Position numbers and translations under genes: made by a program. From contig CAKOIS010000004.1 in the NCBI GenBank assembly GCA_934087065.1, forward strand, positions 419 through 64,418: 64,000 bases of DNA, given 5' to 3'. Positions 2,029-62,922 of the stretch are shown here, piece by piece (the stretch's first letter is position 1; each line of letters starts with the position of its first letter). Under the pieces are notes generated by a model that worked only from the letters and a program-made list of their open reading frames with translations, was not told the origin of the DNA and ran no database searches. The stretch is from an uncultured Bacilli bacterium. GTDB taxonomy: Bacteria > Bacillota_I > Bacilli_A > RF39 > UBA660.

Positions 2029-2075
2029 AGATAGGCGCGTCCGCCTAAAGGCGGATTATCTATCTCCGTTTTTTT
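2029..2075 (+). terminator. Rho-independent terminator of ABC operon
   Basis: GC-rich nested hairpin (gatag...tccgcc-taaa-ggcgga...ctatc) followed by T-run ccgttttttt. Confidence 0.8.
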
Positions 2076-2177: not shown

Positions 2178-4109
2178 TTAGCATCCACTTGAAGTTTCAA
2201 CTATTTCATATGGTGTATCTGATGTCCCATTTCCTGTACTATATAGAGTGCAAGATTTGAGAGAAACTGCCGGACGCACACCGTACGCGTTGCTGACGTA
2301 GATGTGGCTCAAGCGGCCAGGGTTGGACGAACCGAACACGAAGAACACGTAAGCGCGGCTGCTATACCAAGCGTTAGGAGACAACAACCACCAGTAAGTT
2401 GAGCCTGTTGAGCTATAAGATGCATCTGTACTGCTAGAACTTGTTGTTAATGTTCCTTCCTTTGCATTCCTAAAATACCATGCATTTGCATTATAGTTTC
2501 CGGATATTCCACCTGCATAACTTATTTCATCTGCTGTCATTAATGCTATTGGGTATGTTAACTTTCCATTTCCTGCGCTACTATCTACTGTGAATTTGTC
2601 TTCTGTTGCTGCACAGTCATAACTTGGTGTTTTATTTGTTTCTAGTCTTGTGTCTGCTGCATAGTTAAATGATGAACTTACACTATATGTTCCATCAGTT
2701 ACACTTCTATCATTACAGTATACTGCTGTTGTACTTAAGTATTTTGTATAGTTAGTTTTTAGATTATTTTCATACCATGTATCTATTATTCCTTTTATTG
2801 TACTAGAATTTGTTTGATTTGTTCTATTATTTGCTTGTGAACCACTTGTTCCATACATATAGCCTACGTACATTGGGTCATTATATGTCTTATTGAACGC
2901 TGTACTTGAGCTTATATATGCATCAGTTGCTGTTGTGCTTGTTCCGTGGTATAGTAGTCTTACACTTCCATCTGAGTTTGTTCTTATTATTCTCCAGTAT
3001 AAGTCTTGATTACTTGCATTTTTTCCAAACTTTACCCAGTTTGTTGTTACGTTTCCAGCAAAATAATATACTGTTTTATTATCTTCTTTAGCTGTATAAA
3101 GTACTTGGTCTGTGCTATCAAATGCTGCGTTAAATGTTGTTCTATTTGTTGTTGCTATTCCTCTATCTGATAATAACTTAGCATATAATGTCGGTAAGAC
3201 TTCATATACACTACATATAGTTCCTTTTTGAACATTACTAAATTTAAGCGTACTTCCTGATACAGTTGGTGTTACATCATTAGTACAACTAATTGTTAAA
3301 TCGCTTAAAGTTTTAGATGTATTAGTTGGTGTTACTGTAAATTCTACATCTTCTCCCTTTAAAACTTGTTTTACATTCTTGTCAGCTGTAGCGTCTTTTA
3401 AATCTAACTCAATAGTTTTTAAATTACTATCAACATCACTACTGCTTCCACTAGGTAAGTATTCCCCTCTAGCACTTATTTGTGTTACAAAATATTTACC
3501 TTGACTAGCGTTAGTCGCGTCACTCTTAAGCCAAGCATATAATTTAAATGTTTTAGTTTCTCCTACAGCTATTAGTATATTTGATGCTATTTTATGGTTA
3601 CCGTCAGCATCAACATTAGCGCTATATAAAGTTGTTGTAGGAGTACTACTTCCTTCCCCAATAGCTATTTTAACTTCATCATCATTTACAAACTCACTAT
3701 ATTCTACCCCATCAGATATTATAGTACCTGCAGTTGGGTCTTTTTCTAAATATAAACTTACATATAATGGAATATCTCCATCATTAGTTAAAGTAAATAT
3801 ATAAGGCTTTAAATTACTCCAGTCACTTGCTGTAGATGGGTCACTTACGGGATATATCTTACTATAAACAGTATTACCATTAGCATCTTTTTCAGTTCCT
3901 ATAACATTACCTATATCACTTATAGTACTATTACAAGTACTATCTTTACAAAAAGCTAAAGAAATATCTCCAAACTTAATTGTATCAGTACTTCCTGTAG
4001 TATCTACTTTAAAAATTGCATAACTCATTGCAATAAAAACCAAACTAACTATAGCTACAACACCAATAGTTATTTTAATTTCTCTATTAATCATACCTTT
4101 TAGTCCCAT
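2178..4109 (-). CDS. Secreted surface protein: SipW-cognate signal peptide + TasA/camelysin-like N-terminal domain + ~330-aa C-terminal domain of unknown family (paralogue of 44540-47221)
   Basis: N-terminus ...AMSYAIFKVDTTGSTDTIKFGDISL resembles the TasA/CalY signal and mature start (A-F-x-D ... FxxGTLDL); SNLKPYIFTLTNDGDIPL resembles TasA SNLKPGDKLTKDFQFENNGSL; sipW-type gene lies upstream in the same strand; C-terminal region aligns with the 898-aa protein. Confidence 0.6.
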   Translation of the reverse strand: MGLKGMINREIKITIGVVAIVSLVFIAMSYAIFKVDTTGSTDTIKFGDISLAFCKDSTCNSTISDIGNVIGTEKDANGNTVYSKIYPVSDPSTASDWSNLKPYIFTLTNDGDIPLYVSLYLEKDPTAGTIISDGVEYSEFVNDDEVKIAIGEGSSTPTTTLYSANVDADGNHKIASNILIAVGETKTFKLYAWLKSDATNASQGKYFVTQISARGEYLPSGSSSDVDSNLKTIELDLKDATADKNVKQVLKGEDVEFTVTPTNTSKTLSDLTISCTNDVTPTVSGSTLKFSNVQKGTICSVYEVLPTLYAKLLSDRGIATTNRTTFNAAFDSTDQVLYTAKEDNKTVYYFAGNVTTNWVKFGKNASNQDLYWRIIRTNSDGSVRLLYHGTSTTATDAYISSSTAFNKTYNDPMYVGYMYGTSGSQANNRTNQTNSSTIKGIIDTWYENNLKTNYTKYLSTTAVYCNDRSVTDGTYSVSSSFNYAADTRLETNKTPSYDCAATEDKFTVDSSAGNGKLTYPIALMTADEISYAGGISGNYNANAWYFRNAKEGTLTTSSSSTDASYSSTGSTYWWLLSPNAWYSSRAYVFFVFGSSNPGRLSHIYVSNAYGVRPAVSLKSCTLYSTGNGTSDTPYEIVETSSGC

Positions 4110-4203
4110 TTATATCACCAACTTATTATCTTCTAATATAATAATTATAAAATAATTTTTTAATTTAATCAAGTAGGTATATACAAAAAAGAAATGTTTT
4201 TTA

Positions 4204-4659
4204 TTACATTTCTTGAATATTAAAAGATATTTCTACATTATTATATAAAGTTATACTATATTCTTTAGTTTCTTTTTTATTGATAATATTATTATCTAAT
4301 ATATAATAAGTAATATTATTAGATTTATAATTATCTAAATTTTCTAAATAAGTTAAGTTATCTAAATATTTTATTTTTAAGTCGTTTTTATTTAAGTTAT
4401 AACTATCTTTCACTCCTAAATATAAAAGATATTCTTTTTTATTTACATCGCTATTACTAACTTCTAAAGTTACACCTTTCTCATCTTCTTTTAATATAAC
4501 TTCTAGTCCTTCTCCATTATTAGCATATCTACTTGCTATAGTAGAATATTTAGACAAATCAATTTTACCCCACGCTATATATGTTAGAACAAGAATAACT
4601 AACATAAATGCTATTTCTGAAACTAAATAAATAATTTTTTTATTGATACTTTCAACCAT
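4204..4659 (-). CDS. Small N-terminally membrane-anchored protein in sipW operon (possible TapA-like accessory/anchor)
   Basis: Single N-terminal TM, Asn/Lys-rich extracellular part; sits between sipW-like and TasA-like genes. Confidence 0.4.
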   Translation of the reverse strand: MVESINKKIIYLVSEIAFMLVILVLTYIAWGKIDLSKYSTIASRYANNGEGLEVILKEDEKGVTLEVSNSDVNKKEYLLYLGVKDSYNLNKNDLKIKYLDNLTYLENLDNYKSNNITYYILDNNIINKKETKEYSITLYNNVEISFNIQEM

Positions 4660-4733
4660 AATACCACCCTTATTGATTCTATATTGTATATTGCTAACTA
4701 AGAAAAGTCAAGAAAAAAAACGCCCATCGTGCG

Positions 4734-5420
4734 TTAATTTATTTTCTTAGGTCTACCTCTTTTAGGTTTAGGTTTCTCTTCCATTTTTTCTTTTCTTCTT
4801 CTAGTTGGTAAATCATCTTCTTGTTCTTCTTCTAATTCTTGCATTTTATTTCTTACTTTAATTAGTTTTAATAATTTCATAATATCATAGATTATTACAC
4901 CCATCGCAGGAATAAGTATTACAGTAAACCAACCAAACTTACTAGCTAAGAAGAATTGTACTCTTCCAAGTTGTGGTATTACAAATCTAACTTTACCTAT
5001 AACTTGACTTTGGTCAATCATCTCGTTATCCATAACAGGGTTAGCATCTCCCTTAGTTCTAAATACTATACCATTATTAGTAACATGTTTTTCAACAACT
5101 CTGTGTGTTATTGGAGTTGAACCAAAGAATGAATTAGTACTATAATATGATATAACATCATTTATTTGAATATCTTCTGGATCCATTTTAGCTACAAACA
5201 CAACATCATAAACTGCTATATCAGGTGTCATACTAGGACTTATAATAGTATATAAACCAAGTGGTTGCCTTTGTCCCTTAGCCTGCGCTATTTTATTAAT
5301 TGCAATATATGACAATAAAAACGCACCAATTAAACACAAAATAGCCATAACACACCAAGAAATAGTCTTAGCTATTAAATAAATTACTCCCCTTTGTTTT
5401 TTCTCTTTCATATCTTCCAC
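4734..5420 (-). CDS. sipW: Type I signal peptidase, SipW-like (ER/archaeal type, S26B) with basic C-terminal tail
   Basis: N-terminal TM, catalytic-Ser motif ISPSMTPDI (SipW-type SxSM), C-terminal TM, tail ...KPKPKRGRPKK. Confidence 0.7.
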   Translation of the reverse strand: MEDMKEKKQRGVIYLIAKTISWCVMAILCLIGAFLLSYIAINKIAQAKGQRQPLGLYTIISPSMTPDIAVYDVVFVAKMDPEDIQINDVISYYSTNSFFGSTPITHRVVEKHVTNNGIVFRTKGDANPVMDNEMIDQSQVIGKVRFVIPQLGRVQFFLASKFGWFTVILIPAMGVIIYDIMKLLKLIKVRNKMQELEEEQEDDLPTRRRKEKMEEKPKPKRGRPKKIN

Positions 5421-5587: not shown

Positions 5588-5636
5588 ATACAAAAACAAA
5601 GTAAGCTTACTTTTGCTCACTTTGTTTTTTACTATA
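5588..5636 (-). terminator. Bidirectional hairpin terminator at the 3' end of queH
   Basis: aaacaaagt ... actttgttt 9-bp stem flanked by A-run and T-run; overlaps last queH codons. Confidence 0.45.
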
Positions 5637-9686: not shown

Positions 9687-10217
9687 TTATTTAAGTAATT
9701 CACATAAATAATGTTCTTCCTTATTATGTTTCTTTTTTATTCTTTTATATTCACTAATATTATTAACTAAATTATTTACTCTCTTTTCATAATAATTGAT
9801 AAGAAAATCAGTTGACTGGTCATATTTTCTACCATTAAATTTTATATTCTTAAGTGCATATTGTTTAGGAGTTAACCCACTTTTATTATAGTCTTTTAAC
9901 ATTCCTTCATTAATTATAAGTAATATTTCTAACTCCGGCTTTGTACAGAATTTAAAAATTCTAGATTTAGATACATAATCTTTTAAATCTAACGGTACTT
10001 TAACTTCGTCACTCTGTTTATCTCCAATTCTGTACACAATAATTTCATCATTATAATGCTTGATTTCTGTTTTAATTACTGGATGAGTTAATTGTCTTAC
10101 ATTGTAAGGTTTTCTACCAATTAAATCTTCCCTAGTAAGAATTAATTTATTATTATCTATTAATAAATTCACAAGTGCTTCTTCATTTTTGCCTTCACAC
10201 ATTAAAAGATATTTCAC
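9687..10217 (-). CDS. DUF4276-like small protein with OLD/TOPRIM-type N-terminal motif; partner of upstream ATPase
   Basis: N-terminus MKYLLMCEGKNEEALVNLLI fits the hhhhhEGxxExxhh TOPRIM/DUF4276 start; 176 aa; 4-nt overlap (ATGA) with the ATPase gene. Confidence 0.5.
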   Translation of the reverse strand: MKYLLMCEGKNEEALVNLLIDNNKLILTREDLIGRKPYNVRQLTHPVIKTEIKHYNDEIIVYRIGDKQSDEVKVPLDLKDYVSKSRIFKFCTKPELEILLIINEGMLKDYNKSGLTPKQYALKNIKFNGRKYDQSTDFLINYYEKRVNNLVNNISEYKRIKKKHNKEEHYLCELLK

Positions 10218-11347
10218 ATTAACTCCTTCTTAAAATTCATTAAATATTCATAATTTAAATTTGTTCCAAATAAATTGTTATAAAAACACTTGCTTTTTAA
10301 TAAATCAGGTCTAACTTTATAATTCTTATACACATTTAATAATTCAATTTTCTTATCATAATTAGTAACATAAATATTATCAAGTCTCTCAAATAAATCA
10401 AGTAACTCAGCATAATGTGTAGTAAATATTAAAGTGGCATTATACTTATTAACACTTTTATCTTTATATAAGTTAATTATATTTTCAACTAAAGTTTTAT
10501 GAAAATGATTTTCTATCTCATCAATTATTAAATCACACCCAGTTTTTAAAGAATAAATTAAATTAGAAAACAAATCTATACCTTTATTAGTACCACTAGA
10601 TAATATTTGATAAAGCTCATAGTAAGTTACTTCCTTTGTAATTTTATCAGAATAAGTAATTCTACATTTATCATTATCAAATTTTTCAATATTACTAATA
10701 TGCGCATCAAATAATTTTAATGTACTCTTTAATGTTTTATTGTTATCATTTAATAATTTAAATACATTAAGTGCGTAAGAGTGAGTTGTGTAAGATAACT
10801 CATTACTTGTAAAAAATATACCTCTTACATCAATAGACTTCAAAACATAATAAACTATAGAAGTATCAAGTGGCATTTCTTTTTTGATATTCATAATTTC
10901 ATACTTACTAAAGTCAAATATATCTCTAATACTTTTAGTATATTTTCTTAAATAAATCTCTTCATTTTTAAACTCAAAAGAACCATTATTTTCATTTTTA
11001 CTAATTTCAGTAATATATCTATATAAGTTTCCTTCGTGATAAAAAACAATTTCTATTTTTAAGTGAGTATCAAATATCTCAAAAAATCTTTTAGAATAAA
11101 CTATTCTAAAATTACTCAAAATATCATAAGCAATATTTATTAAACTCAAAACTGTAGTCTTACCACTCGCATTTTTTCCTATAATTGAAGTAGTGTTAAA
11201 GGTAAATAAATTTTCTTCTATCTCGCCAAGTTCAAATTCTTTATCGTCTAATGTTTTCTTAGAAACGGGAACTAGAGAAAAACTTAAATCTTCTTTACAC
11301 AAATTAAAGTTATTAAATTTAACATTTAATAGTTTCATACTTTTCAC
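10214..11347 (-). CDS. AAA_21/AAA_15-type (ABC-like) ATPase of a two-gene defence-like module
   Basis: Walker A GKNASGKTT, Walker B/D-loop LIIDEIENHFH, H-loop FTTHYAELL; no transport or SMC context. Confidence 0.7.
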   Translation of the reverse strand: MKSMKLLNVKFNNFNLCKEDLSFSLVPVSKKTLDDKEFELGEIEENLFTFNTTSIIGKNASGKTTVLSLINIAYDILSNFRIVYSKRFFEIFDTHLKIEIVFYHEGNLYRYITEISKNENNGSFEFKNEEIYLRKYTKSIRDIFDFSKYEIMNIKKEMPLDTSIVYYVLKSIDVRGIFFTSNELSYTTHSYALNVFKLLNDNNKTLKSTLKLFDAHISNIEKFDNDKCRITYSDKITKEVTYYELYQILSSGTNKGIDLFSNLIYSLKTGCDLIIDEIENHFHKTLVENIINLYKDKSVNKYNATLIFTTHYAELLDLFERLDNIYVTNYDKKIELLNVYKNYKVRPDLLKSKCFYNNLFGTNLNYEYLMNFKKELM

Positions 11348-15570: not shown

Positions 15571-16950
15571 TCATTTCTTTTCTTCTTTATCAATATTTTC
15601 TTCACTTTCTTCTTTATTATTATCTTTCTTATCTTTTTCATTCATTTTATCTAACATAATTTTCTTTACTTTCTTTTTTCTTCTACTCTTTCTAATCATA
15701 TTAAGAACAAGCACCATTAAAAGAATTAAAGTCTCCACTCCTAAAACTATTATAATAAGTAAATAATTATCTACTCTCTTACTTAAATCATTTATAATAG
15801 TTTTATCATATTTAACAAAAGAATTATTAGTTGTATCTAACTGATAAAAACCTTCTACATTATTTTCTATATTCACTCCATACACTACATAAAAGTCTTT
15901 ACTATTTTTATATCTATATGCATTTATTTTTTCTTCATTTAATGTAATAGTCTCTTTAACAAACCCTTTTAATTCTTCCTTACTTTCTTTAGGAAATAAA
16001 GTAATACCACTAGTTTTAATCTCTCTATATAATGTATAAGTATCATTCATTTTATCAAATACATATAATTTAGCTTCTCCACTACTATTTTTTAAACCAA
16101 CTAAAACATAATTAGTAATACTACTTTTAAAAGCAGGAACTTCTATACCATTAATGGTTTCTTTAGTCTCTTCATAAGTAGAAGGACAGACTAATGTACT
16201 AACTCTTTTAACAACAGTATACTTCTCATTATCAATAACTACTTCAATAGGATTTTTGTCTTCTACATTTACTTTTACTGTATAAGTTTTAGTACTTCCA
16301 TTTTGCGCTGTTACTTTAATTTCAAACTTGTTTTCCCCTTCACTTACCTCAAACTCTCCAAGTCCTGTTGCGCTTGCTGTATTATCTTCAACACTACCAT
16401 TAATATTAATCTTAGTAACATCACTCGGTACACTTACTACATACTCTAAAGTATCTTTATTAAATTCACTTTCAAATGTATACCCTTCTACTTCTAAACT
16501 CTTAAGATTATTATTTTTACTATAACTAGCTTCCAACTCTTCCTGAGTAATTGCATTAATTCTAACACTACCTGCACTAATAGATAACTTACTTTCATCA
16601 AACGCATACCCATTATAACTACTAATACTTACACTACTACTACCTCTTGCAATTACTTTAAATGTATACTTGTAACTTGCACTCTTTGTACTAGAATTAG
16701 ATGCATAGTCAACTATATGCGTATCTCCACTTACTAACTTTAATTTAGAACTATCATAACTCAAACTATACTCCCAACTTCCTAGTGCACTACTGCTACT
16801 TACATTGACAGTTACAGTAATTTGATTTCCCACAATTGGACTACTTTTACTAGTACTAACTCTAATATTAGCACTTGCTGCACTTAAACTTAATACTCCC
16901 ATAAAACTCACTATTACAGTAAGTATTATTTTCTTAAACATTCCCTTCAT
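15571..16950 (-). CDS. Cohesin-domain protein with cadherin-like beta-sandwich domain, C-terminal TM anchor and Lys-rich tail
   Basis: Signal peptide; ANIRVSTSKSSPIVGNQITVTVNVSSSS...YSLSYDSSKLKLVSGD cohesin-like pattern; C-terminal hydrophobic helix + RKSRRKKK. Confidence 0.55.
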   Translation of the reverse strand: MKGMFKKIILTVIVSFMGVLSLSAASANIRVSTSKSSPIVGNQITVTVNVSSSSALGSWEYSLSYDSSKLKLVSGDTHIVDYASNSSTKSASYKYTFKVIARGSSSVSISSYNGYAFDESKLSISAGSVRINAITQEELEASYSKNNNLKSLEVEGYTFESEFNKDTLEYVVSVPSDVTKININGSVEDNTASATGLGEFEVSEGENKFEIKVTAQNGSTKTYTVKVNVEDKNPIEVVIDNEKYTVVKRVSTLVCPSTYEETKETINGIEVPAFKSSITNYVLVGLKNSSGEAKLYVFDKMNDTYTLYREIKTSGITLFPKESKEELKGFVKETITLNEEKINAYRYKNSKDFYVVYGVNIENNVEGFYQLDTTNNSFVKYDKTIINDLSKRVDNYLLIIIVLGVETLILLMVLVLNMIRKSRRKKKVKKIMLDKMNEKDKKDNNKEESEENIDKEEKK

Positions 16951-16965
16951 AATTATTCACTCTCC

Positions 16966-19215
16966 TTAAAATGTTATAGATTTTAATATATATTTTTGTA
17001 CTCTAAGTAAATCTAATATTGTTACTTCCCCGTCTGCATTAGTGTCTCCACTTATTAAATATTCACTACTTAATTTAGAAGAACCAAGTAAGTGTTTTTG
17101 AACCTTTAACAAGTCAAGTATTGTCACTTCTCCGTCTCCACTCACATCTCCTATGATGCTTATTACAAAGCTCTTACTTTCTCCAGATGGAGTAATCATC
17201 TTTATTGTTTGTCCAGTCTTTAAAGTACTTCCACTTCCTACTCCAACACCATTACTTTCATTAATTGTAACAGTTGTACCAGCACTATACTTATTTATAC
17301 TGTTTATTAGTGTCCCAGCATTAGTATTAGGACTAATATTATATATTACACTACCATTAACTTTAACACTTAAATTACTTATTATATCATTAATACTTGT
17401 AGTATCATTTACTTTTATAATAGTTAACTTATAAATTCTAACATCTCCGTTTTCACTAGTTACCTTAATTTCATGAATAGTCTTATCACTAGTTAAATCT
17501 AACTTACCCGTACCTTCTACTTTACTAGAAGAATCAGTAAGTACTACACTTAAATTATATTCTTTATCATTTTTATTAACATACACATTAAATTCTAGTA
17601 TATCTTTATCAAAATTACTTACATTCTTCCCATTAATACTTATACTTTCAATTGTATTTATTTTACTTACATTAGTTGGTAAACTTACCACTTCAGGCAT
17701 ATTTAAAAATACTGGAATATCAAATAAGAATGGTTCATCTAGTAACTTCATTTCTTGATATGCTATATATGCGTCAGCCCCTTCACTTGCAGGCGCTAAG
17801 ACGTTAGTTTGATATGAATGAGTATACAATGTAGCACTTGTATTATAAGCTGGGTCCACATTAAATCTTTGTAAATATTGTGTGTGTTGTCCATCAGCTA
17901 TATACCCTTCAGCTATTATTTGTGCTCCACCATAAATTGCTTTTTCTCTAGTATCCCACGGTTTATAATATTTATCATCTCCACCACATTTACTACCACA
18001 CGCATACTTTAACCCATTTAACACTGGGTTTGGCCATCCTGCTGTTTTATAAGCATTAATATTATAAAAGTTATAATACCCTTTTAAATTAAGTCCATTA
18101 TACAATTCACTATATGTTCCACTTACAGCAACGTAACTCTCATTTGTTGCTCCTTCTCCATGTGCACGAGTTGCTAAATGCACAGGACTCACGTTATGTG
18201 TAAACCCTGCTCCAATAAACATATATTTATATTCATCAGTATTCAAAAATGACCCACTAAACACACTACTAATAGTATTATAATATTTCTTAGTTATCTC
18301 ACTATCTTTATTTAAAGTATCCTTATTATCACTTCCATAATTATATTTCAAACTTTCAAACATAAACACAAACTTTTCAGTTAAAAAGTTTCTTGGGTCT
18401 AAATAAAATGCTGTCACTTCAGGTTTAGCTCTATACCAACCACTCCCATCAACTGAATCATCATCATTCACTCTATATAAATCATTTGCATAGTTTATTA
18501 AGTTTGTCTTACTTGTTACTCCACTTACTACTTCACTCCAATGTAAATTTGTAATAATTGGTTTAAAAGTCCATGTAGGATGCAACTTATGTAACTTAGT
18601 TAAATACGGAATATAACTTTCAGGAAATCCTAGTTCACTCAAATACTTAGCATATTCTGTATCCGTATCCACCATTTCACTCTTTTTAAGAACAAACTTA
18701 GAACACACATATCCTATACTATTCTTATTATATTTTATTTTATAAAATCCTTCACTACATCCACTTCCACTTATCTTGTCTCCCATAATTGTAACATTAG
18801 TTCCAGGTAAAAGTGTAGTAATTAAACTAGAATTATAACTATTACTTTTCATTACTTTAATATTAACACCATTTATTCTAGCTTCAAAAGTATCAGTGTT
18901 GTATGAAACGTCTTCTCCCCCAGTCACTTCTCCAATTGACACATATAACCCACACATATAAGCTTCAGTATTATTAATTTTAATCTTATACCATCCACCA
19001 CTACAGTTTACATCATCTTTATTATATAACTCATCACTCACTAGATCTAACACAGTATTTTTTTCATTAATTTGTCCTAATCTTTTATAATTCGTACCAG
19101 GTCCTTCTCTATATCCAACGTATGTATTAGTAGTGTATCCACTAAGCGCATTTACTTTGGTAACCATGAAAAAACTTACAAATATAGTTATAACTAAAAA
19201 CATTATTTTTTTCAT
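16966..19215 (-). CDS. Secreted multidomain putative peptidoglycan hydrolase: 2x SH3b + glucosaminidase-like catalytic region + cadherin-like domain + C-terminal type-I dockerin
   Basis: Signal peptide; SH3b-like repeats; C-terminal duplicated Ca-binding segments GDVSGDGEVTILDLLKVQKHLLG / GDTNADGEVTILDLLRVQKYILK typical of dockerin. Confidence 0.6.
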   Translation of the reverse strand: MKKIMFLVITIFVSFFMVTKVNALSGYTTNTYVGYREGPGTNYKRLGQINEKNTVLDLVSDELYNKDDVNCSGGWYKIKINNTEAYMCGLYVSIGEVTGGEDVSYNTDTFEARINGVNIKVMKSNSYNSSLITTLLPGTNVTIMGDKISGSGCSEGFYKIKYNKNSIGYVCSKFVLKKSEMVDTDTEYAKYLSELGFPESYIPYLTKLHKLHPTWTFKPIITNLHWSEVVSGVTSKTNLINYANDLYRVNDDDSVDGSGWYRAKPEVTAFYLDPRNFLTEKFVFMFESLKYNYGSDNKDTLNKDSEITKKYYNTISSVFSGSFLNTDEYKYMFIGAGFTHNVSPVHLATRAHGEGATNESYVAVSGTYSELYNGLNLKGYYNFYNINAYKTAGWPNPVLNGLKYACGSKCGGDDKYYKPWDTREKAIYGGAQIIAEGYIADGQHTQYLQRFNVDPAYNTSATLYTHSYQTNVLAPASEGADAYIAYQEMKLLDEPFLFDIPVFLNMPEVVSLPTNVSKINTIESISINGKNVSNFDKDILEFNVYVNKNDKEYNLSVVLTDSSSKVEGTGKLDLTSDKTIHEIKVTSENGDVRIYKLTIIKVNDTTSINDIISNLSVKVNGSVIYNISPNTNAGTLINSINKYSAGTTVTINESNGVGVGSGSTLKTGQTIKMITPSGESKSFVISIIGDVSGDGEVTILDLLKVQKHLLGSSKLSSEYLISGDTNADGEVTILDLLRVQKYILKSITF

Positions 19216-44539: not shown

Positions 44540-47221
44540 CTAATTCATTACATATGGATCACTTTGTGTTCCACTTCCTGTTACTGTTATATCAGACTTT
44601 AAAGCCATAACTGGAGAATAAGCATTTGCATTAGTCACTGAAGCACCAGCACCACCGTTTCCTAAATACCCTGGTCCATCTACATAGAATACGTAACTAG
44701 TATCCGCAGGATTAGGATTTATTAGCCATTGTAATTGTTGAGAACCTTGATATAACCAGTTGTTATTATAACATGCATATATGTTACTATATTTACTTGG
44801 CATATTTGTTCTTACACAATCACTCGCTAGTACAGCATATCCATAATCACTTGGATATGTTAACCCTACGCTTCCAATATATGTTGCAGTGCTAGAAGAA
44901 CTTGGTCCTATGCTTCCTTTACTTTCCAGTACCCTCTCCATTTTATATAAATCTGCTGATGTATATGATGTATATGAGTTTGATGTACCCAAATACATCT
45001 TGTAATTCACGGTGTTTTTAAAGTTAGTCAAACTATAATTAATTAATGTGTTTCTAGAAATGGTTGACGTCGGGTAATAATTTAAACTAGTACCTAAATT
45101 ATACAAAGAAGTTGGATAATTATTTCGTTCATAATACTTTCTTACTCTTATTACATTTTCCCCATTTTCTCCATCTGGAAATAATCCTATAATTCTCCAT
45201 AATTCTTTAGTTCCATTATTTTCCATATAAATATAGTTATTTGGGTCACTACCTTCATATCTATATCCATTTTCATTTACTGCATTTGTTTGAATTAATG
45301 TTGCTAATGATGTTCCATTTTTCTTAAATGTTATTGAACAACTTTTTGCACTTATTATATTGCTTATTGTGTAAGTATTACCGCTTAATGTTCCACCACA
45401 TGTATCTGTTTCAAGTTCTGCTTTATAACCTGAATTAGGTGCTACAGTAAATTTTGCATCTTTACCTTCTTCAACAAGTACTGTACCTGTACCACTTCCG
45501 CTATTAACATTTAAATTAACTTCATAAGTGTTAACTGGTACTGCTTCTATAATATAAGGATTTTCTGCACTTCCATCTCCAGTTTTATATATGTTGCCTC
45601 CATTAATTGAAATCACTGGTCTTACAGCTAAAACATTTGATAAAATAATAAGTGGAGATCCAATTCTACTAATTTCTACATTTTTTCCACCTAAGCCATA
45701 AACATTCCCGCGATATTGAGTTGATACTCCTTCAGGAGTTAATAACCAGCTCCACAAATCACCAGTAAGATTTTTGCTTAAGCTATTGTTTGAATACCAC
45801 ACTTTTTCATTTTTTTCATGATACAATCCTCCAGCATAAACAGCTTCATCTACTGTCATTAAAGAAATAGAATACTTTAAATCACCATTTCCAGTGTTTG
45901 TATTTAAAACGCTAAAACTGTCTTCTTTTGACGCACAAGAATAAGTAGGATTACTATTATTTCCAATTGTTTTTATTCTATCACTAGCAGAAAAGCTTGT
46001 ATAATTTCCAGGTGTTTTATAATTATCATAAGAACTGTTTACTGATATACTTCTATCTTGGCAATAAACTGATTCTTGACTTATATAACTATTTAATTTC
46101 AATAAATGTTTGTTATACCAACTATCTATATAATTTTTAATTACACTTGAGTTTTCATTTGTTCTGTTATTTTCTAAACTTCCTTTAGTTCCATACATAT
46201 ACCCAATATTTAATGGATCAGCTTCTTCAAATTCACTAAACACTGACGTTCCAATATAGCCTTTTTCTGTATCTGAACTTGTTCCTGAATATAATAATCT
46301 TATACTACCGTCTTGGTTTGATCTTATTATTCTCCAATACATTGGATCACCTTTTTTAGCAATTTGAACACTTCTACAATTAGCCATTTCGTATTTAACT
46401 CCTCTAGAAGTAATCTTATATGAACTACATTCTGCCATTGTAGAAAACTCTTTTTGAGAAACAGTAAACACATCCCCAGTATCTACATTCTTAAAATCAC
46501 CTAAAATTGTAGTCTTATCTTCTTGCCACTCTCCAAACTTTACCCAGTTATTTCTAGCATCTCCTGCAAAGTAATACACATCAGTATTATTTTCTTTTGC
46601 TTTATATAGTGTATTTACATTACTTTCAGTGTATATGTTACTAAAGTCTGTTCTAGTTTTTATTGTTGGGTTATCAGCTAGTAACTTATCATATATTTTA
46701 GGTTTCCCTGTACTTTCTTCAATAGCTAAAGTCCCACCTAGTTTCTTCCCCATATCACTACTTTGATCTTCCTCTATACTTACGTATTTAAATTCTACTT
46801 GATATGTTTGCTTACTTCCCTTTGGAATTACTACATCATATGCTAAAACTACATCTTTTGATGTTTCTGTTTTAATTACATTTAAATAGTTATCCATATT
46901 GTATCCAGTATCACTTGTTATTTTATACTGAAGTGTATTTATACTTTCAAACGTATTAACTAACCCCTTTAATAAAATATTATAGTTAAAATCTTCTTTA
47001 CTATTATTAGTAATTGTAAATGTTTTAACATTATTCCATCCAGGACTTATTGTTTCATCAGCTATACTGGAAGTATCCGTAAAAGTTATCGCAACATTCT
47101 TTGCTACTAAGTTTATATCTTTGGGGTTACCAATTACTCTTGCTGCGAAAAACGCAAGACTACAACTTATTGTAACTATTATTAAAGTTGTTACTATTAC
47201 TCCTAAATCTATTTTTTTCAT
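44540..47221 (-). CDS. Large secreted surface protein: TasA-like N-terminus + two tandem copies of the novel ~330-aa domain shared with 2178-4109
   Basis: Start at Met-6 (AGGAAGTGG RBS); N-terminal TM/signal; WRIIRSNQDGSIRLLY, MYxGYMYG, VRPVISI motifs repeated (second copy WRIIGLFPDGENG...SPVMALK). Confidence 0.6.
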   Translation of the reverse strand: MKKIDLGVIVTTLIIVTISCSLAFFAARVIGNPKDINLVAKNVAITFTDTSSIADETISPGWNNVKTFTITNNSKEDFNYNILLKGLVNTFESINTLQYKITSDTGYNMDNYLNVIKTETSKDVVLAYDVVIPKGSKQTYQVEFKYVSIEEDQSSDMGKKLGGTLAIEESTGKPKIYDKLLADNPTIKTRTDFSNIYTESNVNTLYKAKENNTDVYYFAGDARNNWVKFGEWQEDKTTILGDFKNVDTGDVFTVSQKEFSTMAECSSYKITSRGVKYEMANCRSVQIAKKGDPMYWRIIRSNQDGSIRLLYSGTSSDTEKGYIGTSVFSEFEEADPLNIGYMYGTKGSLENNRTNENSSVIKNYIDSWYNKHLLKLNSYISQESVYCQDRSISVNSSYDNYKTPGNYTSFSASDRIKTIGNNSNPTYSCASKEDSFSVLNTNTGNGDLKYSISLMTVDEAVYAGGLYHEKNEKVWYSNNSLSKNLTGDLWSWLLTPEGVSTQYRGNVYGLGGKNVEISRIGSPLIILSNVLAVRPVISINGGNIYKTGDGSAENPYIIEAVPVNTYEVNLNVNSGSGTGTVLVEEGKDAKFTVAPNSGYKAELETDTCGGTLSGNTYTISNIISAKSCSITFKKNGTSLATLIQTNAVNENGYRYEGSDPNNYIYMENNGTKELWRIIGLFPDGENGENVIRVRKYYERNNYPTSLYNLGTSLNYYPTSTISRNTLINYSLTNFKNTVNYKMYLGTSNSYTSYTSADLYKMERVLESKGSIGPSSSSTATYIGSVGLTYPSDYGYAVLASDCVRTNMPSKYSNIYACYNNNWLYQGSQQLQWLINPNPADTSYVFYVDGPGYLGNGGAGASVTNANAYSPVMALKSDITVTGSGTQSDPYVMN

Positions 47222-47275
47222 ATATACCACTTCCATCTATATTATTTACATATTCTAACAAAATTATTATAACAT

Positions 47276-60924: not shown

Positions 60925-62922
60925 TTACTCTCCTTTATTTTCTCTCATTTTAATTAAGGCTTCATTAATTGCATCATCTATAGTAGTACTCTCACTTGTT
61001 ATCATAAAGTATCCCATACTAGCTCCATATTCATAAGGAAGAGATTTAAACTCCTTCATTAACTTATTAACATAAGTAACTATTTGATTTTCTTCATAAC
61101 CAACTAAATATATAAGAAATTCATTACCATCTGTTCTAATAATCTCACTATTCTCTCTTTGTGTTTTAATAAGAATACTAGCTGCACTCTTAATCTGTCT
61201 ATCTCCCTCTTCATGCCCTTTAGTATCATTAATAATTGAAATATTATTTAAATCAATTACTACAACAGCTTGAGGATACACTTTATTATCTTCCCAATAA
61301 CTTAAATTATCATTTAAATAATTTCTATTCTTTAAGTTAGTCATTACATCTAAATACATCATCTTATCTTCTTTTTTGATCTTCTTAGTTACTTTAACTT
61401 TTCTATTAAACTTATAAAGTAAGAATACTACTGCAATAACAAGAAGAACTAAATAAGTAATATTACTTATAATAAACTCAATTAAAATATTTCTACTAGC
61501 CATATTTAAACTATTATCAATAGCCATACTCTCAATATTCTTATTACTAGTAGTGCTCAAATAAAAGTTAAATAAATTATTTAAAACTTTATTATCATTA
61601 TTTAAAAGGAATGTATTACTAACAGTACTCTCACCCATATATTTAATCACATATTTTTTAAGACTACTATTTTTATAATAATCATATGTACTCTTTTCAA
61701 TTACAAGAATATCTTCCTCAGTCAAACTCTTAAACATTTTTTTATAATTTTTATAAGTATTTATATTACTATTTATACTACTTATATACTTATAAAGTTT
61801 AGTATTCCCAACCATTTTAATATTATCATCACTTATTGAAACTAAATTATCAAAACTATCTTTATTACTTTGATGTGCTAAAATTACATACTTAATGCTA
61901 CCTAAACTTACACTATCAACATAGTTCGAGCTATTTACATCATAATAGTTTACTGCTAAATCCACTTTTTTATTATTTAATGCTTCTATTAATTTATTAA
62001 CATCTTTGTATTCAATGTATTTATAAGTAGCTCCTGTCATATCACTAAATATACCTAAATACATATCAGTAATACCACTAAAATTTCTATTAAGCTTTCC
62101 TTCAAAAGGCATATTATCAACATACCCTACGATTAAATCATCACTTGTTACTCTTTCCTTTTCAACTTCTGTTAAATTGTACGCATCATAATATAACTCT
62201 AAGAAATGACTATTAATGCTAGGTAAAATTTCACTTTTCCACATATTAAATGCTTTAGTAAATATCTTACTCATCGTGCTACTAGAGTCATTCATACTTA
62301 AAACATAATGAGAGTGTAGCCCATCGATATGATAAACTATATTATATTTGTTATAAACTATAGAATTAATATACTTTTGCATTGGCAATATTGCATATAA
62401 AACGCTATCACTCATTTGGTCAGTTAAATCATTAAAATGACTAAAACTAACAATATTCACATTATATTCACTCATATACTTACTAACATAATCTTTATCA
62501 GTATCCATAACAGCAACATTTTTACCACTTAAGCTATTTAAATCAACTATCTCGTCACTCAACGTACTAACAACAACAAAGTGGTCAGTATAAAATAGTA
62601 AATCATTACTACCTAGTTCATTCTTATTTGCAAATTTATAAGTTCCACTTCCATTAACTTGAACATTAAAAGTAAGTTTAGTATCTCTTTCCATGTAATT
62701 AACAAAATCATAAAATACCCCAACACCACTATTACTAAATATTGGTAAACTTCCTTCAACACTTACATCTATTACATTATTTAAGTTTGAATTTATAAAA
62801 CTCTTCTCACTAAAAGAATAACCGTTTTTCCTACCATTCAAGTACATTAGTAAACATAATATTAAAACAATTAAAACTAAAACAAGCCCACCTATTAAAA
62901 AATATTTCTTATTTTTTTTCAT
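60925..62922 (-). CDS. Membrane protein with large extracytoplasmic sensor region and C-terminal degenerate GGDEF domain (DGNEF)
   Basis: TM1, ~450-aa external region, TM2, GGDEF-domain motifs (DLNNISIINDTKGHEEGD ... RTDGNEFLIY); active-site GG[DE]EF replaced by DGNEF. Confidence 0.7.
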   Translation of the reverse strand: MKKNKKYFLIGGLVLVLIVLILCLLMYLNGRKNGYSFSEKSFINSNLNNVIDVSVEGSLPIFSNSGVGVFYDFVNYMERDTKLTFNVQVNGSGTYKFANKNELGSNDLLFYTDHFVVVSTLSDEIVDLNSLSGKNVAVMDTDKDYVSKYMSEYNVNIVSFSHFNDLTDQMSDSVLYAILPMQKYINSIVYNKYNIVYHIDGLHSHYVLSMNDSSSTMSKIFTKAFNMWKSEILPSINSHFLELYYDAYNLTEVEKERVTSDDLIVGYVDNMPFEGKLNRNFSGITDMYLGIFSDMTGATYKYIEYKDVNKLIEALNNKKVDLAVNYYDVNSSNYVDSVSLGSIKYVILAHQSNKDSFDNLVSISDDNIKMVGNTKLYKYISSINSNINTYKNYKKMFKSLTEEDILVIEKSTYDYYKNSSLKKYVIKYMGESTVSNTFLLNNDNKVLNNLFNFYLSTTSNKNIESMAIDNSLNMASRNILIEFIISNITYLVLLVIAVVFLLYKFNRKVKVTKKIKKEDKMMYLDVMTNLKNRNYLNDNLSYWEDNKVYPQAVVVIDLNNISIINDTKGHEEGDRQIKSAASILIKTQRENSEIIRTDGNEFLIYLVGYEENQIVTYVNKLMKEFKSLPYEYGASMGYFMITSESTTIDDAINEALIKMRENKGE

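Follow-up and report, generated by a model that had tools for sequence, protein, structure and literature searches.

We found that a conserved three-gene cluster on the minus strand of a 64,000-nucleotide stretch of an uncultured Bacilli genome (assembly GCA_934087065.1, contig CAKOIS010000004.1; hereafter, the window) joins a SipW-type signal peptidase to a small membrane-anchored protein (mid) and a TasA-like 643-aa protein that ends in a large, strain-variable DUF6273-type head. On balance, we favor reading the 643-aa protein as a SipW-processed surface adhesin of the donor-strand type whose head is exchangeable, rather than as a plain matrix fiber. TasA-type fibers are known mainly as scaffolds of the Bacillus biofilm matrix and, more recently, from archaea. 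The original prediction for this locus, made by reading the sequence without database searches, had proposed the same gene order, and the coordinates and motifs it quoted were all found:

4734..5420, minus strand: open reading frame (ORF) of the peptidase, 228 aa counted from GTG
4204..4659, minus strand: middle ORF, 151 aa (mid)
2178..4109, minus strand: large ORF, 643 aa

The peptidase most likely starts at the ATG at 5411, preceded by the ribosome-binding site AGGTGG, for a product of 225 aa. The window is AT-rich (GC 24-34%). Since more than 120 database proteins (clustered) are 78-99% identical to the 643-aa protein across its full length, and since the trio is syntenic in other assemblies, the three ORFs are real genes and not chance ones.

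The 643-aa protein is built from four parts:

4017..4109, minus strand: signal peptide (aa 1-31), with a SipW cut predicted after S-Y-A31
3435..4016, minus strand: N-domain (aa 32-225, ~195 aa), all-beta in the AlphaFold2 (AF2) model
3195..3434, minus strand: immunoglobulin (Ig)-like linker (aa 226-305), beta strands in the AF2 model, at low confidence
2181..3194, minus strand: head (aa 306-643, ~340 aa), DUF6273-type by PF19789 and AF2 model

To define the N-domain family, residues 1-310 were searched against 1.84 billion representative proteins, which returned 96 relatives (representatives at 50% clustering). Many of these are stand-alone proteins of 190-260 aa that end where query residue ~220 aligns, the others being fusions of 450-1400 aa; therefore, the N-terminal module consists of the signal peptide and a domain of ~195 aa. 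The family shares the pattern K/R-E-I, a hydrophobic stretch and then S-Y-[A/S/G]↓x-F...N.I.FGD[IL].[LM]..C....C...YP..D...PY.F.[LIV].N.G......L..D...[IV]K[IV]...K.[FY].L..W[LI]...A.N..QGKYF..[IV]..GEY, in which the arrow marks the predicted cut. In the 643-aa protein, these motifs take the form SYA↓IF (residues 29-33), IKFGDISL (44-51) and SNLKPYIFTLTNDGDIPL (98-115). The AF2 model of the N-domain, computed from a 56-sequence alignment, is all-beta with a mean predicted local distance difference test (pLDDT) of 81 and a predicted template modeling score of 0.78, and the first 11 residues after the predicted cut are disordered in the monomer (pLDDT < 50). The linker was modeled with a pLDDT of only 45-73, and ~80-aa modules like it occur in other family members. 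A pair of cysteines in the N-domain, Cys54 and Cys59 (FCKDSTC, window 3933-3950), is at least 90% conserved in the family at both positions, and the head holds one cysteine in LKSC (617-620) and another as the very last residue, in SSGC (640-643; window 2181-2258), that are conserved across many paralogues. The two pairs resemble cysteines that close loops by disulfide bonds in an anaerobe's extracellular protein.

The original prediction had likened the N-terminus of this protein to TasA and camelysin. The likeness stands by transitive profile homology, by relatives with the same head that pass the Peptidase_M73 model and by synteny with stand-alone versions of 228-261 aa, while the direct models miss it. 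We compared three sets of sequences: the query's own clade (A1), distant members of the N-domain family (A3) and a reference set (A5) of TasA, its sequence checked against 8AUR, and three proteins above the Pfam cut-off for Peptidase_M73. With signal peptides included, profile comparison of A1 with A5 gave a probability of 96.8% (E 2e-10) and of A3 with A5 99.0% (E 4e-18, 175 columns). With signal peptides removed, A1 still matched A3 (99.9%, E 1.7e-36) and A3 still matched A5 (97.7%, E 1.6e-12; 93.7% and E 2e-7 when the protein P0409 was left out). Since this control keeps both of these steps and the direct comparison of A1 with A5 is weak, the link of the N-domain to Peptidase_M73 and TasA is transitive. 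In hhalign, the query's own clade did not match the single TasA sequence significantly. Sub-threshold matches of other family members point the same way as the profiles: Peptidase_M73 was approached by two of 27 close family members (E 0.066) and by P0213 (E 0.0066), TIGR04088 by one of 27 family members (E 0.042) and TIGR04090, the BsaA family model, by a single member (E 3.6e-4). At another locus (L075), a distant N-domain family member lies two genes from a bona fide Peptidase_M73 protein (41.9 bits).

Searches at the level of known structures gave less. The AF2 model, which had been proposed for comparison with the TasA structure, was confidently all-beta, but Foldseek found no significant match for it in the PDB (best E 3.7e-3), and TasA was absent from the top 50; TasA-superfamily matches to the Saci_0406 thread and CanA reached only E 0.029. 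A phmmer search of PDB sequences found no match for the 643-aa protein, and the N-domain family profiles touched AbpX alone among PDB sequences (E 0.3). We concluded from the profile evidence that the N-domain is probably a divergent, as yet unmodeled, branch of the TasA superfamily.

The signal peptide would fit such an origin. The cleavage-site motif S-Y-[A/S/G]↓x-F is conserved in the N-domain family, with S29, Y30 and F33 at least 90% conserved, and hhalign places SYA↓IF over the proven cut site of TasA, TWA↓AF, and FGDISL over SGTLDL. In TasA, the donor strand comprises residues 28-38, and hydrophobic contacts are made by F29, I32 and F39 (PMC9674648). We infer that a SipW-type peptidase removes the signal peptide after Ala31.

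A candidate for this enzyme is encoded at 4734..5411. It scored 98.1 bits (cut-off 51.85) against TIGR02228, the model of archaeal/ER-type signal peptidase I that includes SipW, and aligned with model positions 4-156 of 158, while it stayed under the cut-off of 190 for the Bacillus SipW equivalog NF046067 (74.4 bits). Therefore, the enzyme is of the SipW type without being the orthologue of the Bacillus protein. The original prediction's assignment to the SxSM type is borne out by SPSM at aa 61-64, which is accompanied by THRV (105-108) and GDAN (124-127), and hydrophobic segments lie near both ends (about aa 11-46 and 158-187). By these features, the product is a SipW-type (archaeal/ER-type) signal peptidase I with predicted catalytic activity. 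Orthologues 58-97% identical to it occupy the same site in loci L001, L073 and L076. After the second membrane segment, the peptidase carries a cytoplasmic tail rich in Lys, Arg and Glu (window 4734-4870), and total length among relatives is 212, 225 and 319 aa (L073 3419-4378 was compared). In B. subtilis, the C-terminal tail of SipW acts separately as a regulator of biofilm formation.

The original prediction had described the middle gene's product as a small anchored protein. The hydrophobic N-terminal segment is there, and the description needs the correction that the protein is probably itself a small TasA-like domain. The 151-aa mid has this single hydrophobic segment followed by a small beta-rich domain, and its homologues (155-172 aa) are in every case encoded immediately upstream of the N-domain protein (L001, L069, L073, L076). 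In hhalign, the mid family matched distant N-domain members with 82% probability (E 1e-5, 128 columns) and the query's clade with 26% (E 7e-4), and some mid relatives end in the family motif "...W.D....EEQGK....". At the position equivalent to the cleavage site, mid relatives lack a small residue; therefore, mid probably keeps its membrane anchor. It had no match to TapA/YqxM (TIGR04087) or to any other NCBIfam model at E ≤ 1. Mid is thus best described as probably a divergent TasA-like minor or anchor subunit, tethered to the membrane. It is reminiscent in function of TapA and of the "membrane anchor" of Tafi loci, but is not a member of the TapA family.

The trio is flanked by typA-queH on one side and a convergent ABC transporter on the other, no phage genes being present, and sipW, mid and N-domain genes were found between queH and the ABC transporter in L001, L073/L074, L076, L077 and L078. 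Related loci differ in what stands third:

L001, L077, L078 (close relatives): third gene is the same fusion as in the window
L073/L074, L076 (more distant): third gene encodes an N-domain protein standing alone (228 or 261 aa; 50-53% identity)
L069-L072: mid and a 229-aa N-domain gene beside the same transporter, with no sipW adjoining
L014 (Clostridium sp. CAG:628): sipW, then a protein with a related head on a different, "type 2" TasA-like N-domain; mid is absent

Since the third gene encodes a stand-alone subunit in some of these loci and a fusion in others, we interpret the cluster as a TasA-type trio whose subunit gene gained the linker and head in the window's lineage. In outline, the surface or adhesin-type arrangement that had been proposed holds, as a SipW-type peptidase does lie beside a TasA-like protein with an extra C-terminal domain.

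That extra domain, predicted to be of unknown family, is present at ~340 aa, and its family can be named. The head scored 27.2 bits (cut-off 23.5) against Pfam DUF6273 (PF19789), with aa 524-619 on model positions 88-172 of 172. This is the only curated match on the 643-aa protein and covers the second half of the model; many of the protein's homologues carry a precomputed PF19789 match. DUF6273-type motifs run along the head (YWRIIR...SVRLLY, IIDTWY, YPIALMTADE, WWLLSP and GVRPAVSL), which suggests that all ~340 aa may form an expanded DUF6273-type domain. The head was modeled with a pLDDT mostly above 90. Neither Foldseek (best E 0.4) nor the head profile found a match in the PDB, and against BFVD the model matched phage "DUF6273 domain-containing", tail-fiber and receptor-binding proteins (E 1.7e-5 to 1e-3, probability about 1.0). 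In the literature, DUF6273 is likened to C-type lectins and described as a receptor-binding domain diversified by diversity-generating retroelements (DGRs; PMC10743442).

The 643-aa protein had also been called giant and novel, but it is not giant and not unique. With a profile made from diverse heads, 7937 of the 8000 candidates scored reached E ≤ 1e-3, and a TasA-type signal ([ST][YFL]A↓YF, by a crude regular expression) begins 91 of the profile's 120 best matches. Two proteins with the same head, P0409 and P0349, exceed the Peptidase_M73 cut-off of 22.5 (30.2 and 27.0 bits), and the 515-aa P0371, with the same head type, has a genuine type IV pilin N-terminus (MNKKG↓FTLVE; N_methyl, 26.4 bits). 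Therefore, the head has been mounted repeatedly on filament-forming N-terminal modules, drawn from two unrelated kinds of filament subunit. The UBA11492 genome holds about ten head-containing loci, most with "type 2" TasA-like N-termini, and the window itself contains one further member:

44540..47236, minus strand: second paralogue, 898 aa (tblastn E 2.6e-49 and 0.002)

This paralogue has a TasA-type signal (SLAFFAARV), a "type 2" N-domain (ISPGW...FTITNNS; ISPGWNNVKTFTITNNS) that aligned with the distant N-domain members (A3), one clear head that is 39% identical over query aa 370-638 and a weaker second head copy; no peptidase gene adjoins it. Fusion of a TasA-type N-terminus to the head is accordingly common, with thousands of unannotated metagenomic proteins predicted to share it in a very large paralogous family.

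Among the 120 closest homologues, mean identity to the window protein was 96% in the signal peptide, 94% in the N-domain and 98% in the Ig-like linker, and 71% (range 67-100%) in the head; only one of them, P0001, carries the window's head allele. The same pattern was evident in DNA when the window was compared with the syntenic loci L077, which comes from human gut data sets of the Hadza, and L078 in 150-nt windows. Identity was 93-100% in most of these across the ltaS-like gene, typA, queH, sipW, the 5' 860 nt of the 643-aa gene and the ABC genes (scattered windows were as low as 0.87), 91-99% inside mid and 81-82% in the window spanning the sipW-mid spacer. Only from about 3250 to 2181, the head-coding part, did it fall to a patchy 52-91%, with a sharp 5' boundary. 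No DGR-type template/variable repeat pair was found in the 64-kb window. The simplest explanation for the variability of the head would be recombination with paralogous head cassettes, diversifying selection, or both.

The original prediction had spoken of an operon, which the transcription signals do not bear out. Four terminator-like sites were observed in the region against 0.8 expected, among them the following hairpins, listed with a promoter-like site:

5592..5629, minus strand: terminator-like hairpin after queH, at the upstream edge of the cluster
4719..4735, minus strand: terminator-like hairpin with T-run directly 3' of the peptidase gene, weaker than the two at the cluster edges
4711-4683, minus strand: promoter-like TTGACT-17-TACAAT, after the peptidase hairpin and ahead of the middle gene
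2032..2047, minus strand: terminator-like hairpin 3' of the 643-aa gene, which is convergent with the ABC permease gene

Promoter-like hexamers precede both the middle and the 643-aa genes. Such sites are not enriched in the region, however (17 observed, 24 expected from shuffled sequence), and since shuffled sequence has at least as many, the hexamers between the genes carry no weight. The sipW, mid and 643-aa genes are a conserved cluster whose status as an operon is putative.

From these observations, we propose that the 643-aa protein would be exported by Sec and its signal peptide cut after Ser-Tyr-Ala31 by the adjoining SipW-type peptidase. The freed N-terminal strand (IFKVD...FGDISL) would act as a donor strand, docking the N-domain on further copies to build a fiber or, alternatively, onto the small membrane-anchored TasA-like mid to give a tethered unit. 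The Ig-like linker would hold out the DUF6273-type head, which would bind a ligand and would differ between strains through exchange or diversification, probably because it recombines with the many paralogous head cassettes of the genome. A more far-reaching version, which we offer as speculation and consider rather doubtful, is that of a Gram-positive adhesive fiber free of sortase and chaperone, in which donor-strand subunits bear or are capped by swappable DUF6273 heads, one SipW and one anchored mini-subunit serve about ten paralogues per genome that possibly co-assemble into a combinatorial display, and head cassettes recombine between paralogues and strains: a FimH-like variation on the TasA scaffold in uncultured gut Bacilli.

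Several observations weigh against the adhesin proposal. The 643-aa protein had no match to Peptidase_M73 (PF12389), TIGR04088 or TIGR04090 at E ≤ 1 in Pfam and NCBIfam scans, so that the check suggested with the first and second of these models came back negative, and it stays below every curated threshold of the TasA, camelysin and SipW-cognate models. With signal peptides removed, the direct comparison of its clade with the TasA reference set fell to 50.7% (E 1.6e-4) and was not significant without P0409. No stand-alone major subunit is present at the locus, and a classic fiber with a tip protein is not evident; the ~420-aa C-terminal load on each subunit may be incompatible with TasA-like packing. 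The C-type-lectin similarity of the head was not reproduced by Foldseek against the PDB. Finally, the terminator-like site at 4735-4719 parts sipW from the other two genes, and most paralogues adjoin no sipW, including every other head locus of UBA11492.

These last points would also suit an uncleaved signal-anchor, by which the protein is a monomer tethered in the membrane with the N-domain as its stalk and the peptidase serves other substrates, an explanation we consider unlikely. Some head-containing relatives (L017, L029, L053) do have plain hydrophobic N-termini without a TasA-like motif, and a cleaved protein without some anchor would be lost from the cell. However, the small residues at -3 and -1 and the Phe at +2 are conserved throughout the family, stand-alone members included, which would be unexpected for a pure anchor; moreover, the cluster with the peptidase is syntenic across species, and in alignment the motif falls on the proven cleavage site of TasA. 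Alternatively, the cleaved protein would be a secreted, soluble lectin, matrix component or enzyme that neither assembles by donor strand nor is anchored. This would agree with monomeric TasA, which is soluble and self-complemented (PMC9674648), with the closed all-beta monomer in the AF2 model and with the 643-aa sequence, which contains neither a sortase motif nor an S-layer-homology domain nor any other anchor to the wall. We think it improbable, since the gene of the membrane-anchored TasA-like partner is conserved directly upstream even without sipW (L069), since both the type IV-pilin-headed (P0371) and the TasA-headed versions of the head point to display on filaments, and since the head matched no enzyme family in Pfam, NCBIfam, PDB profile or Foldseek PDB searches.

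The variability of the head raises the separate idea of a phage-derived receptor-binding protein, a prophage remnant or a DGR target. The closest structural matches of the head are indeed the phage proteins, and DUF6273 domains are known as DGR targets (PMC10743442). Nevertheless, a prophage origin was rejected because the chromosomal synteny (typA-queH-...-ABC transporter) is conserved without phage genes, and DGR-driven variability was rejected because the window holds no repeat pair and the divergence is patchy over the whole ~1 kb head, not confined to one A-directed variable region of ~100-150 nt; we regard this origin as very improbable. Hardly credible is processing as a type IV pilin, with MGLKG↓MINRE cut by a prepilin peptidase between Gly at -1 and a segment with Glu at +5. 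The spacing G5-M6...E10 superficially fits a class III signal, and P0371 has a true N_methyl pilin N-terminus on the same head, but the 643-aa protein had no N_methyl (PF07963) match in Pfam or NCBIfam, the Gly is not conserved (the family consensus is xxLxKxIKxEI) and the conserved motif is found where the hydrophobic segment ends on its C-terminal side; on the first two grounds, a prepilin cut at G5-M6 was rejected.

If the adhesin proposal is right, our results suggest that a common group of uncultured gut Bacillota may use the TasA export and assembly module to display a large family of strain-variable heads. This would add a major class of gut Gram-positive adhesins that needs neither sortase nor chaperone-usher machinery, and would give DUF6273 its first functional context outside phages. 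The head segment would then be a locus for strain typing and host interaction, and the protein would serve as a natural experiment on the size of C-terminal cargo that donor-strand subunits of the TasA type tolerate.

The genome records nearest to the window come from uncultured gut Bacillota, e.g., "Bacillota bacterium UBA11492" and "Clostridium sp. CAG:628", and further close records are many metagenome-assembled genomes (MAGs) labeled "uncultured Bacilli" or "Tenericutes" from human, rabbit and ruminant guts. The host appears to have a cell wall: among the window's products are a LytR-CpsA-Psr plus PASTA protein and two LtaS-like members of the sulfatase family. Given these genes, the wall-less, mycoplasma-like host raised by the "Tenericutes" and "Mycoplasma" labels on relatives is unlikely. 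A GGDEF (diguanylate cyclase) domain forms the C-terminus of a 665-aa protein (60925-62922, minus strand) that might regulate biofilm or surface functions. Side by side at 15571-19215 (minus strand) are genes for two putative surface proteins, the 749-aa one carrying SH3_3 and type I dockerin domains and the 459-aa one a cadherin-like domain. For a small-genome gut Bacillota lineage with no obvious cellulosome, the dockerin is unusual, and the N-domain family member P0200 also has a dockerin-like segment. Between the ltaS-like gene and gpsA lies a candidate AbiL-type anti-phage defense pair (9687-11347, minus strand) with overlapping stop and start codons, the first gene encoding a 377-aa AAA ATPase (PADLOC AbiLi, E 5e-37; Pfam AAA_21) and the second a 176-aa protein without a family match.

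Among the closest known systems is tapA-sipW-tasA of B. subtilis (TasA: Peptidase_M73; 5OF1, 8AUR), in which a SipW-type peptidase is likewise clustered with a beta-sandwich matrix or fiber protein and a smaller accessory protein of related fold. The cleavage and donor-strand motif is in the same register, TWA↓AF...F.SGTLDL in TasA and SYA↓IF...FGDISL in the window, and the strand motif "NLKP...F.F.N.G.L" is common to both. The window differs in gene order (sipW, mid, large gene), in the Ig-like linker and ~340-aa DUF6273 head that TasA lacks, in missing the Peptidase_M73 and TIGR04088 thresholds, in an accessory protein that is apparently an uncleaved anchor without a TapA match, and in its lineage's many paralogues per genome and strain-level variation of the head. 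Known counterparts of the head are the phage receptor-binding DUF6273 proteins (PF19789; tentaclins, PMC10743442) and, in the IgA protease ThomasA, the N-terminal domain (PMC12402451); the head matches the Pfam model and the structure predictions of phage DUF6273 proteins. Like them, the head is variable and predicted to be surface-exposed, but it is about twice the length of the Pfam model, which matches only in its second half, and it sits on a TasA-like module, with no DGR in the window.

Loci of the AbpX/Tafi type, of the TasA superfamily, are reported to encode signal peptidase I, minor subunits and predicted tip proteins with variable, lineage-specific heads (bioRxiv 10.64898/2026.01.04.697558). 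The shared logic (see also PMC12337348) is a TIGR02228 peptidase, one or more small TasA-like subunits and a larger protein with an N-terminal pilin-like domain and a head, and AbpX was the one PDB sequence touched by the family profile. A textbook AbpX-type locus occurs in a distant gut Bacilli lineage (L068; complete MAG OZ006970.1, 4511-10070), where the small subunit has 166 aa (GVGYA↓VV) and the multi-transmembrane signal peptidase 382 aa. A DUF5305 protein there scores 42.1 bits (cut-off 29), and a 900-aa protein combines an IGYA↓AV signal with a head of the same type and a GH3 glycosidase domain (275 bits). In contrast, the window's peptidase is of the two-transmembrane SipW type, its locus has no DUF5305 protein and no separate major subunit, and its host is a gut Bacillota rather than an extremophile archaeon. 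The tip adhesins of chaperone-usher systems, FimH and PapG (lectin and pilin domains), are alike in function to the proposed adhesin, pairing a donor-strand-type pilin domain with a ligand-binding head that has strain-variable alleles; sequence, export and assembly machinery are unrelated, the order is reversed (pilin-like domain N-terminal, head C-terminal) and the host is Gram-positive, with no chaperone or usher. What sets the window's locus apart is that the syntenic "major subunit" gene itself bears the head, that it belongs to a very large paralogous family of gut Bacilli and that hypervariability is restricted to the head.

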